In this document: positions 1-27,876 of the stretch, piece after piece
Position numbering within the stretch: the stretch's first letter is position 1
Layout of the letters: the number at the start of each line of letters is the position of its first letter
Assembly (NCBI GenBank): GCA_020444065.1
Contig: JAHLLQ010000004.1
Span: forward strand, 198,662 to 262,661
Origin: a bacterium
GTDB taxonomy: Bacteria; Sumerlaeota; Sumerlaeia; SLMS01; JAHLLQ01
Reading direction: 5' to 3'
Length of the DNA: 64,000 nucleotides
Translations under genes and position numbers: made by a program
The notes under the pieces: generated by a model
What the model was told of the DNA's origin: nothing
Database searches by the model: none
Seen by the model: the letters and a program-made list of their open reading frames with translations, nothing else

Positions 1-436
1 CCAATCCTGGGACTCGGTGCCGCCGGCGCCGGAGTGAATATCCACGAAGCACGGCAGCTTGTCCTCGTCGGACGTCAGCAGCGTCTGGATCTCCAGCTTC
101 TCGTAGCGGGCGACGAGATCGTCGGTCAGGGCGGACAACGCCTCGGCGTCTTCCGAATCCTCCTGGCCTTCTTCCTTCAGAAGCTCGGCCATTTCGAGAT
201 TCTCGGTGGCCTCGCTCTCCAGCGTCTCCCAAGGCTCGATGCCGGCCTTCAGATCGTTCAACTGGCGCATCAGCTTCTGCGCGCGCTCGGCTTCGTTCCA
301 GAACTCCGGGTGTTGGGTTTCTATCTCGAGGGATTCGATCTGCTGCTTCTTTCCCTCGAAGTCAAAGAAACCTCCTGTTTTGGACGCAGGAGTCCTTGAT
401 TTCACGCAACTTGGTAATCGTCTCAGACAAAGTCAT
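1..436 (-). CDS. prfB: peptide chain release factor 2, partial (C-terminal part lies beyond window start); needs programmed +1 frameshift. Frame 0 = 436..365 (24 codons MTLSETITKLREIKDSCVQNRRFL, then in-frame TGA at 364..362); +1 frame continues from 363 to <1
   Basis: Reverse strand read by hand: ATG at 436..434, 24 codons, then CTT TGA C. Shifting +1 after CTT gives DFEGKKQQIESLEIETQHPEFWNEAERAQKL...DIHSGAGGTESQDW, which matches the RF2 N-terminal region as I recall it (E. coli RF2 ...DYDAKKERLEEV...WNEPERAQAL...). Track ORF 362..1051(-) ends in ...NRRFL, confirming the frame-0 stop. Confidence 0.9.
361..376 (-). other. programmed +1 ribosomal frameshift site of prfB: SD-like AGGAGG (376..371), 3-nt spacer TTT, slippery CTT (367..365), in-frame stop TGA (364..362), then C (361)
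   Basis: Reverse-strand sequence AAACAGGAGGTTTCTTTGAC; same architecture as the E. coli RF2 autoregulatory site AGGGGG-TAT-CTT-TGA-C. Confidence 0.85.
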
Positions 437-613
437 CGGGGGTCTCTCTTTCTTGATCGGCCCTGAATATCCAGGGGCGGCGAATCGTAGAGGCAAGAGG
501 CGGACCAAAGCAAGGGCGGAGAATTCCCGACAGCATCTAGCCCTGACGCGGCTCCAAACCTGTCCCACAATCTCCTTCGTATCCAGTTTCATTCGGGGAC
601 GAGGAGGAAGTCG

Positions 614-1213
614 ATGAAGAGCCTGGCATTCACGCTTGCTATCATTGCCGCAATTGCCCTGGCGCTGCTCATCAACCACAGCGCGAAGATCTTCTACACG
701 CCAGGTTTGGCCGACGACGACAAGGCGATTCGAGGACTCGTCCAACGCTACTACAGTCATCTGCGCGCCGACGAGTTCGAGCAGGCGGCTTTGTGCTACG
801 AGCCATCGGCATTCCTGGGCGTTCCATTCTCTGGCGCCGAGGCACTGAAGGCAGCCAAAGAACTGAGCGGAGAGATTCCCGAAGAAATCAGCGTCGAAGC
901 GCTGCGCATCAACGGAACGACGGCCTTCGGTGAAATCGTGATTCAACGCGATGGAATCGGTCCGGTCAGCATACAGATGACCGACTCCGAGGGGAACCGA
1001 ATCGGCACCTGGGCGCGCACGTTGCACTTCGTGAAACTCAACAACGGCCAATGGCGCATCGCCAAGGACGACGACCAGGCCCTGGAATTGGACCTGGACT
1101 CGACGTCAGGGGTATTGAATGTCGCGCGGCAATACCTGAACGATCCAGCCAACAAAGACGAGATTCAGCGAGCGATCCAAGGCGCCAGTCAGCAGGCAGG
1201 CACTGCGGAATAG
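614..1213 (+). CDS. membrane-anchored NTF2-like / SnoaL-like (DUF4440-like) protein, hypothetical
   Basis: Track ORF 199 aa; strong RBS GAGGAGGAAG 4 nt before ATG; N-terminal hydrophobic helix (LAFTLAIIAAIALALLI); NTF2-fold-like composition. Family assignment is an impression, not a search result. Confidence 0.5.
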   Translation: MKSLAFTLAIIAAIALALLINHSAKIFYTPGLADDDKAIRGLVQRYYSHLRADEFEQAALCYEPSAFLGVPFSGAEALKAAKELSGEIPEEISVEALRINGTTAFGEIVIQRDGIGPVSIQMTDSEGNRIGTWARTLHFVKLNNGQWRIAKDDDQALELDLDSTSGVLNVARQYLNDPANKDEIQRAIQGASQQAGTAE

Positions 1214-1223
1214 GTCTCAGTCC

Positions 1224-1907
1224 TCACGGCCGCGGGTGGATGATCACCAACTCGTTCGGAAGTTCATTCTTATCGTCCGGTTGGATGGGAAGCATTTCAG
1301 CCAGTTTGCCTTTTGCTTCGGCAATCGTTTGCGTGAAGGTCTCGGCGCGGCGGCCGGCGCGGAGTTGTTCGACGGCCAGATCGCGCAGGCTGTCCAGGAA
1401 GTCCTGTCCGACCTTTTCCGCCAAAGCATGGTCCGCGAGCACCACGACGCGGCGCTCGAAGAGCGAAAGGTACACGAGAATACCGCCGCGCAGTTCCGTG
1501 CAGGCCAATCGCCGCGATCCGAAGACATGCGACGCCGCCCGGGTAACCTCCGCGATCATTTCCTTCTCGCCAACGAAGAGCCGTCGCAGCAGGTGGACGT
1601 AGCTGGCAATGACGGAACCGGCGATGAATCCGAGCGTAACCGCCACGGCCTGCCAGCCGAACCCGATTCCGCTTGGCGAACCGAAGTTGCCGAGCGCGCC
1701 GCCTTCGCGCGAGAAGTCGATGAAGTTCACGCCGCCCAATACGACCAACGCCGCGATCAGGCCGCAGATCGACTCCGCGCGATCATAGCGGCCGGACTCG
1801 GTCGAGATCGCGCAAACGATCTCCGCGGCTGTGGCCTTCTCCGCCTCCGCGACGGCCTCTTCGACCTCGCGCTTCTGATTGCTGTTCAAGAAACTCTGAG
1901 CATTCAT
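1224..1907 (-). CDS. TPM-domain protein (putative), membrane-associated
   Basis: Track ORF 227 aa; N-terminal motif EVEEAVAEAEKATAAEIV resembles the TPM signature; hydrophobic segment; sits just downstream of a second TPM-like gene on the same strand. Confidence 0.5.
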   Translation of the reverse strand: MNAQSFLNSNQKREVEEAVAEAEKATAAEIVCAISTESGRYDRAESICGLIAALVVLGGVNFIDFSREGGALGNFGSPSGIGFGWQAVAVTLGFIAGSVIASYVHLLRRLFVGEKEMIAEVTRAASHVFGSRRLACTELRGGILVYLSLFERRVVVLADHALAEKVGQDFLDSLRDLAVEQLRAGRRAETFTQTIAEAKGKLAEMLPIQPDDKNELPNELVIIHPRP

Positions 1908-1941: not shown

Positions 1942-2790
1942 TTACCAGGAGCCGGTGGCTCCGCCGCCGCCGGAGAAGCCTCCGCCGAAACCGCCACTGC
2001 TGCCGAAGCCGCCGCCACCTCGGCTGCGCACGAAGACGGCCAGTATGCCGACGATGATCCAGGAACAGAACGCCATCGCCAGCAGCACTCCACCGGCGAT
2101 GAGCAGCTTCGAGCGGTACTCCGGGAAGAAGATCGCGAGGATCATCAGGAAAACCCCAAGTCCCGCCATCAGGAGAATGATGAAGAACGGGAAGAAGCTG
2201 AATGTCTGAACATCCTGGCCGAGTTGTGTGCTCTCAAGGCGATCGAAGAAATCCTGCTGCGGCAACGTCTCGGGATCCTGCGCGGCAAAGGCGCCCAGCT
2301 TGGCAACCCCCGCGACGATCCCGCCGGAGTAGTCGCCGGTCTTGAATCTCGGAATGATGTCGGTCTGCATGACCTGGTTCGCCGCATAGTCCCACCGCGA
2401 ACCCCAATCGGCCCCGAGTTCGATCCGCGCCTTTCGATCGCCCAGCGACACCAACAACAGGATTCCCTTGTTTCCCCCCGGCGCTTTCGAGCCGATTCCC
2501 CACGAATCGAACCAGTCGCGGGCGAAATCCTCGATGCTCTCACCGCTGCTGCCGTACTGGGCCATCGAGTTGATTGTCACGACAACAATCGGGACATCGT
2601 GCTCCTCGTAGGCCTGACGCTGGATGTTTCCGAGGACGCCGATGTCCTGACGTGTCAGGAGATTGGCGTAATCATTCACAAACGAGTCGTCGGTCGGGAC
2701 GGGCGGAATCTGCGCCGCGGCCAGGGCCATTGGGATCAGGAAAGCCAGGGCCAGCACCCAGAAGGCTTTCCTGCAAGAAAATCGTCGCAT
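1942..2790 (-). CDS. TPM-domain protein (YgcG-like), signal peptide, C-terminal TM helix and Gly-rich tail
   Basis: Track ORF 282 aa; signal peptide MRRFSCRKAFWVLALAFLIPMALAAAQ; TM segment FFPFFIILLMAGLGVFLMILAIFF; tail GGGGFGSSGGFGGGFSGGGG typical of YgcG-like TPM proteins. Confidence 0.6.
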   Translation of the reverse strand: MRRFSCRKAFWVLALAFLIPMALAAAQIPPVPTDDSFVNDYANLLTRQDIGVLGNIQRQAYEEHDVPIVVVTINSMAQYGSSGESIEDFARDWFDSWGIGSKAPGGNKGILLLVSLGDRKARIELGADWGSRWDYAANQVMQTDIIPRFKTGDYSGGIVAGVAKLGAFAAQDPETLPQQDFFDRLESTQLGQDVQTFSFFPFFIILLMAGLGVFLMILAIFFPEYRSKLLIAGGVLLAMAFCSWIIVGILAVFVRSRGGGGFGSSGGFGGGFSGGGGATGSW

Positions 2791-27717: not shown

Positions 27718-27876
27718 CAATTCTTCGAGCTGGAATCCGCGACCGGCGGGGTGGACAACCGGACCGTTCGCGCACCCGGAACGGTAAACTTATGGCTGCT
27801 TCCTTCCGGACCTGACCAGGTTCGTTCCCGTCCGTCGCACGGGGCCCGGCTGTCCACTCCGCCGGCCCGCGGGGGA

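Follow-up and report, generated by a model that had tools for sequence, protein, structure and literature searches.

The left edge of the window (the whole 64,000-nucleotide stretch of DNA analysed here) almost certainly carries the 5' part of prfB, the gene of the class-I release factor 2 (RF2), with a canonical programmed +1 frameshift site. This was claimed in a preliminary description of the same DNA, which placed an ATG at 436, the string AGGAGG-TTT-CTT-TGA-C at 376..361 and an open +1 frame behind it, and all of these coordinates are exact. The finding is correct but ordinary and already known, as the recoding signal has been known since 1986 and is catalogued in >8,000 genomes. In this study, we provide the full-length product, the frame under selection on both sides of the site and a comparison with other prfB loci.

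Elements of the prfB recoding site

prfB is encoded on the minus strand and is cut by the left window edge, with the first 145 of its 377 codons inside. The start codon ATG (434..436) opens a frame-0 segment of 24 codons (365..436; MTLSETITKLREIKDSCVQNRRFL). Read on the minus strand, the codons after the ATG (436..434) run from ACT TTG TCT GAG through GTC CAA AAC to AGG AGG TTT CTT and are followed by TGA C. The internal Shine-Dalgarno (SD)-like element AGGAGG forms codons 21 and 22 (Arg-Arg; 371..376). It is followed by the 3-nt spacer TTT (Phe 23; 368..370), which would be the E-site codon during the shift, and by the slippery codon CTT (Leu 24; 365..367). In the preliminary description, 24 codons were counted and the AGGAGG-TTT-CTT stretch was placed after them; the number of codons was right, but AGG-AGG-TTT-CTT are codons 21-24 and are included in the 24. 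Directly after codon 24 lies the premature in-frame stop TGA (364..362), which completes CTTTGA at 367..362 and, with the C at 361, forms a weak RF2-specific termination context (361..364). The +1-frame segment covers codons 25-145 (1..363; DFEGKKQQIESLEIETQHPEFWNE...GGTESQDW), starts with DFEGKK and is open from 363 to 1, without any stop up to the window edge.

All elements of the motif are present, namely a stop near codon 25, CTT-T, an SD-like hexamer 3 nt upstream and a C after the stop, and the site is canonical in every element. It lies at the codon that is homologous to the frameshift junction of E. coli RF2. The pattern AGGRGG-NNN-CTTTGAC has a single exact match in the 64 kb, compared to 0.01 expected from shuffled sequences.

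The list of open reading frames contains a 229-aa frame-0 ORF (362..1051, -), which extends upstream through the oppositely oriented neighbour gene, and a 121-aa antisense ORF over the 5' part of prfB (34..399, +). Both had been mentioned in the preliminary description, together with the expectation that automated gene callers misreport such genes, and this expectation was borne out on two public contigs. On the Logan contig L002, which carries this same sequence, the caller chooses a +1-frame GTG (window 405) as the start and predicts a protein of 367 aa without the true N-terminus, and on L001, a contig of a close relative, it starts at a TTG in the +1 frame. Both public gene calls are wrong at the N-terminus. 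The proper annotation is a single CDS that joins 436..365 with 363..1 and onwards over the +1 shift, rather than a truncated gene, a split gene or a pseudogene.

The gene next to prfB is a divergently transcribed 199-aa ORF (614..1213, +) with a signal-peptide-like N-terminus and no recorded Pfam match. Beyond it, on the minus strand, lie two genes with matches to the TPM_phosphatase domain, one at 1224..1907, where the match is faint, and one at 1942..2790, which ends in a Gly-rich tail. The bacterial small SRP RNA (RF00169) was found at 27754-27851 (-) with 66.2 bits, as the sole Rfam match at the gathering threshold. A search for tRNA genes in the 64-kb window found none.

Identity of the product and the frame under selection

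The joined translation of the part inside the window (145 aa) matches the Pfam PCRF domain (E = 3.6e-17). It also matches the NCBIfam RF2 model TIGR00020 with E = 5.4e-28, compared to 1e-7 for the RF1 models. Searched against solved structures, its best matches are all RF2 chains (E ~4e-17). The alignment crosses the junction, where RRFL|DFEGKK of the window stands opposite RGYL|DYDAKK of E. coli; this Leu-Asp pair is the known frameshift junction of E. coli RF2. The frame-0 segment aligns to residues 1-25 of the RF2 chain 9fy1_8, beginning at residue 1, and in E. coli RF2 to the stretch RGYL. It covers the N-terminal helix of the solved RF2 chains, and the RF2 profile is matched from profile position 2.

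The full-length product was rebuilt from L002 (run SRR14069912), which was reached via the neighbouring 199-aa protein (614..1213, +). This contig is 100% identical to the window over an overlap of 3,246 nt and reaches 1,695 nt further, but it possibly stems from the same sample, so that it does not confirm the base calls independently; support of that kind is provided by L001 and the 78 motif-bearing loci described below. The joined product has 377 aa and ends at a TGA stop. In the part outside the window, carried by L002, it contains SPF at residue 206 and GGQ at residue 253 (context SGKGGQKVN). SPF is the RF2-type tripeptide for stop-codon recognition, with PxT as its counterpart in RF1, and the GGQ motif catalyses peptidyl-tRNA hydrolysis. 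The 377-aa product scores 481.9 bits with TIGR00020 (prfB) and passes the curated cutoff of 370, whereas it fails both RF1 models (254.6 and 246.6 bits, cutoffs 400 and 423). Precomputed matches recorded for the L002 gene are PF03462 and PF00472 (PCRF and RF-1 domains). The claim that the +1 frame continues into RF2 was thereby confirmed for the whole protein, with an alignment that passes through the junction.

The protein database contains one close relative with 85% identity, and all others share 30-40%. The close relative is encoded on the ENA contig L001, which is labelled Sumerlaeia SLMS01 and has ~85% identity over the N-terminal part. Its gene opens with an ATG and 24 codons (MTLSETIARLRDIKDSCVQNRRYL), and its site reads AGGAGG-TAT-CTT-TGA-C. 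It shares the N-terminus MTLSETI with the window gene, and its ATG is the first start codon following an upstream stop. When the GTDB species representatives were scanned with the 145-aa product, no relative was found, as the divergence of the N-terminal domain is too high for the pattern method used. The full-length product was needed, and with it the best two matches among the GTDB species representatives were Candidatus Sumerlaeota MAGs with 62% (L003) and 60% (L004) identity. Judged by these best matches, the window probably stems from an uncultured and under-sampled representative of this phylum.

From an alignment of the window gene with L001, we took the codon differences in each frame, given here as synonymous : non-synonymous. 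Upstream of the site, the ratio is 7:4 in frame 0, compared to 2:9 (frame +1) and 2:10 in the other frames. In the first ~240 nt downstream of the site it is 27:11 in frame +1 (7:31 and 4:34 in the others), and over the rest of the gene 95:22 (14:107 and 5:116). These counts indicate that purifying selection switches from frame 0 to frame +1 at the site. Such a switch argues against a pseudogene, against a start at GTG 405 and against a one-off sequencing error.

That the window carries a decaying copy, with a functional in-frame prfB elsewhere in the genome, is therefore very improbable. Our inspection covered 64 kb of the genome, which leaves room for a second gene, but the selection in the proper frame is strong on both sides of the site, the full-length product scores above the RF2 cutoff with SPF and GGQ kept, and the interruption is a conserved functional motif rather than a random lesion. 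Within the 64-kb window, neither tblastn with the N-terminal domain nor a six-frame scan for GGQ[HN]VN found a second release-factor gene or a GGQ motif; the scan is blind to the GGQKVN variant of this lineage, and tblastn likewise gave only the prfB locus. The preliminary description had made its reading depend on the alignment of the +1 frame to RF2, which holds, and on the absence of another, uninterrupted prfB, which holds for the 64-kb window.

Equally little credence can be given to a model without any frameshift, in which the +1-frame GTG at 405 is the start codon of a 367-aa protein and the frame-0 ORF is not translated into RF2. This is exactly the model of the Logan gene caller, and the +1 frame is indeed open back to position 434. 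The substitutions upstream of the site fit frame 0 and not frame +1, however, and both the N-terminal helix and the profile of RF2 are matched by the frame-0 peptide. Moreover, the N-termini encoded in the +1 frame differ between the window (VKSRTPASKTGGFF) and L001 (MPGSAISRTHASRTGGIF), and by eye no SD-like sequence is evident just before the GTG. A start at ATG 436 followed by recoding remains the preferred reading.

L001 deviates from the window in one further respect. At ~2876-2906 of this contig, within the part that encodes the acidic linker in domain 1 of RF2, 1 nt is deleted and 6 nt are inserted compared to the window. The result is a second, mid-gene frame break, by which prfB is called as two genes (115 aa and 230 aa). 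We considered that the L001 copy itself might be a pseudogene, which is disfavoured by the 95:22 ratio beyond the break and the contig coverage of 2.95x. In view of this coverage and the ratio downstream, an assembly error in the variable linker is more likely than decay.

Proposed mechanism of recoding and its sequence context

In E. coli, the ribosome pauses at the internal stop when RF2 is low, the SD-like element pairs and the tRNA-Leu slips to UUU. By analogy, translation of the window gene would start at ATG 436 and proceed through 24 codons in frame 0, until CUU (Leu24) occupies the P site and UGA-C the A site, a stop read by RF2 only and in a poor termination context. With plentiful RF2, termination at the UGA would release a peptide of 24 residues, and with scarce RF2 the ribosome would pause there. 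The AGGAGG 3 nt upstream could then pair with the 3' tail of the 16S rRNA at a spacing that is too short for the normal geometry. The P-site tRNA-Leu may re-pair from CUU to UUU at the slippery codon, and GAC (Asp25) would be decoded next, now in the +1 frame, which would lead to the 377-aa RF2. In this way, RF2 would limit its own synthesis. We infer the shift in this organism, its efficiency and the autoregulation from work on E. coli, B. subtilis and Flavobacterium (PMC12421855, PMC10798248).

Of the 43 long ORFs of the window, 8 have an SD-like 5-mer ahead of their first ATG. Compared to the background of 1.8%, this is an approximately ten-fold enrichment, which suggests that the organism probably uses SD/anti-SD pairing. 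A search for rRNA genes in the 64-kb window, including the 16S rRNA gene, whose 3' tail would carry the anti-SD sequence CCUCC, found none. No sigma-70-like promoter was found in window 1..700.

At 372..392, the mRNA has an inverted repeat (CUCCUG/CAGGAG), which overlaps the internal SD-like element. We considered that it might sequester this element and rejected it as a chance feature. Its folding reaches z = -1.5, 16 of 200 shuffled sequences fold at least equally well, and in longer contexts z is near 0. In L001, the stem is disrupted by a synonymous substitution. The same repeat was flagged on the opposite strand by a terminator scan.

The recoding site in other bacteria

As a comparison set, 80 prfB loci were taken from GTDB species representatives, and the homologous position was inspected in each. 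In most of them, the match to the query begins only at residue 23-24, i.e., at the junction. A purine-rich SD-like hexamer, a 3-nt spacer and CTT-TGA or CTT-TAA are present at the homologous codon in 78 of the 80 loci. The two others are L062, which is without the 5' end of the gene, and the Treponema locus L081 (2351-2650), which is truly in-frame and without the motif; both of these, as well as L057, were assigned by inspection. The 3-nt spacing and the CTT are the same in all 78 loci, and the ATG-to-CTT distance amounts to 23-25 codons in the majority of the other loci. The stop at the site is TGA in 72 and TAA in 6 loci, and the base that follows is C in 72. The most frequent hexamers are CGGAGG (30 loci), AGGAGG (12), CGGGGG (7) and AGGGGG (6), and the spacer codon is TAT in 30, CAT in 18, TAC in 11 and TTT in 9. 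The complete 16-mer of the window recurs in L012 and L080. At the Cytophagia locus L057 (1429-1450) the site is kept with a weak SD-like element (AAGGTG-TGT-CTT-TGA-C). Bacteroidia are reported to retain the motif despite their rare use of SD sequences, and L057 is in line with this.

In a survey of 12,753 RefSeq genomes, the motif was found in 64% (PMC12421855). Its SD-like element approaches AGGGGG and is followed at a distance of 3 nt by a hyper-conserved CTTT, the base behind the stop is C, and among the motif-bearing genomes the stop is TGA in 98.6% and TAA in 1.4%, and never TAG (PMC12421855). The geometry of the window site, which the preliminary description had called classical, matches this consensus as well as the 78 loci. 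An uninterrupted gene, in which the extra T is a 1-nt insertion introduced by sequencing or assembly, is effectively refuted: single-base indels are common in metagenome assemblies and L001 seemingly has one elsewhere in the gene, but the interruption falls exactly on the known recoding codon with every accessory element and recurs in L001 and in 78 of 80 loci of other genomes, and in-frame prfB genes are without the SD-like and slippery elements (PMC12421855).

Loss of the motif was associated with high GC and high TGA usage in the survey (PMC12421855). The window has a GC content of 60.6%, and a crude set of 35 non-overlapping long ORFs in the 64 kb ends in TGA 17 times, in TAA 11 times and in TAG 7 times. 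Contrary to the association, prfB retains the motif in this fairly GC-rich and TGA-rich genome. The window gene is one more data point for the persistence of the ancestral RF2 autoregulatory motif in Candidatus Sumerlaeota, at ~60% GC and with TGA as the commonest stop; the understanding of recoding itself is unchanged by it.

A TAA stop is read by both RF1 and RF2. CTT-TAA occurs in 6 of the 78 motif-bearing loci (L003 at 671-690, L004 at 676-695, L019, L045, L067 and L071); it is followed by C in the two Sumerlaeota loci L003 and L004, and by G or A in the four Ignavibacteria/Melioribacter loci. The identity of the stop at the site varies within the poorly sampled Sumerlaeota, with TGA in the window and L001 and TAA in L003 and L004. 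It is tempting to speculate that TAA is fixed in whole sub-clades and that these lineages have shifted from sensing RF2 only to sensing the total activity of release factors. We consider this unlikely; in the survey, TAA was scattered and not fixed in clades (PMC12421855). If TAA were fixed in this way, the window gene would represent the canonical state for comparison.

The site in E. coli prfB was reportedly described by Craigen and Caskey in 1986 as a programmed +1 frameshift at AGG GGG UAU CUU UGA C. The window gene corresponds to it in the gene concerned, in the position of the junction (Leu then Asp, near codons 25/26) and in the +1 frame that encodes the remaining RF2. Both share a 6-nt SD-like element, a 3-nt spacer, CUU, an RF2-specific UGA and the C after the stop. 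They differ in the hexamer, which is AGGGGG in E. coli and AGGAGG in the window, and in the spacer, which is UAU (Tyr) in E. coli and UUU (Phe) in the window, and both differences are common elsewhere (AGGAGG in 12 and TTT in 9 of the 78 loci). In the Sumerlaeota L003 (JAFIGB010000370.1), L004 (CAYFUR010000141.1) and L001, the site lies at the same codon as in the window. The site reads CTT-TAA-C in L003 and L004 but CTT-TGA-C in the window and L001, and L001 has the spacer codon TAT instead of TTT. The in-frame prfB genes, e.g., of Actinomycetota, many Spirochaetota and the Treponema locus L081, encode the orthologous RF2 protein, but they have no premature stop, SD-like element or slippery sequence at the homologous position. 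The window gene clearly belongs to the motif-bearing class of prfB genes.
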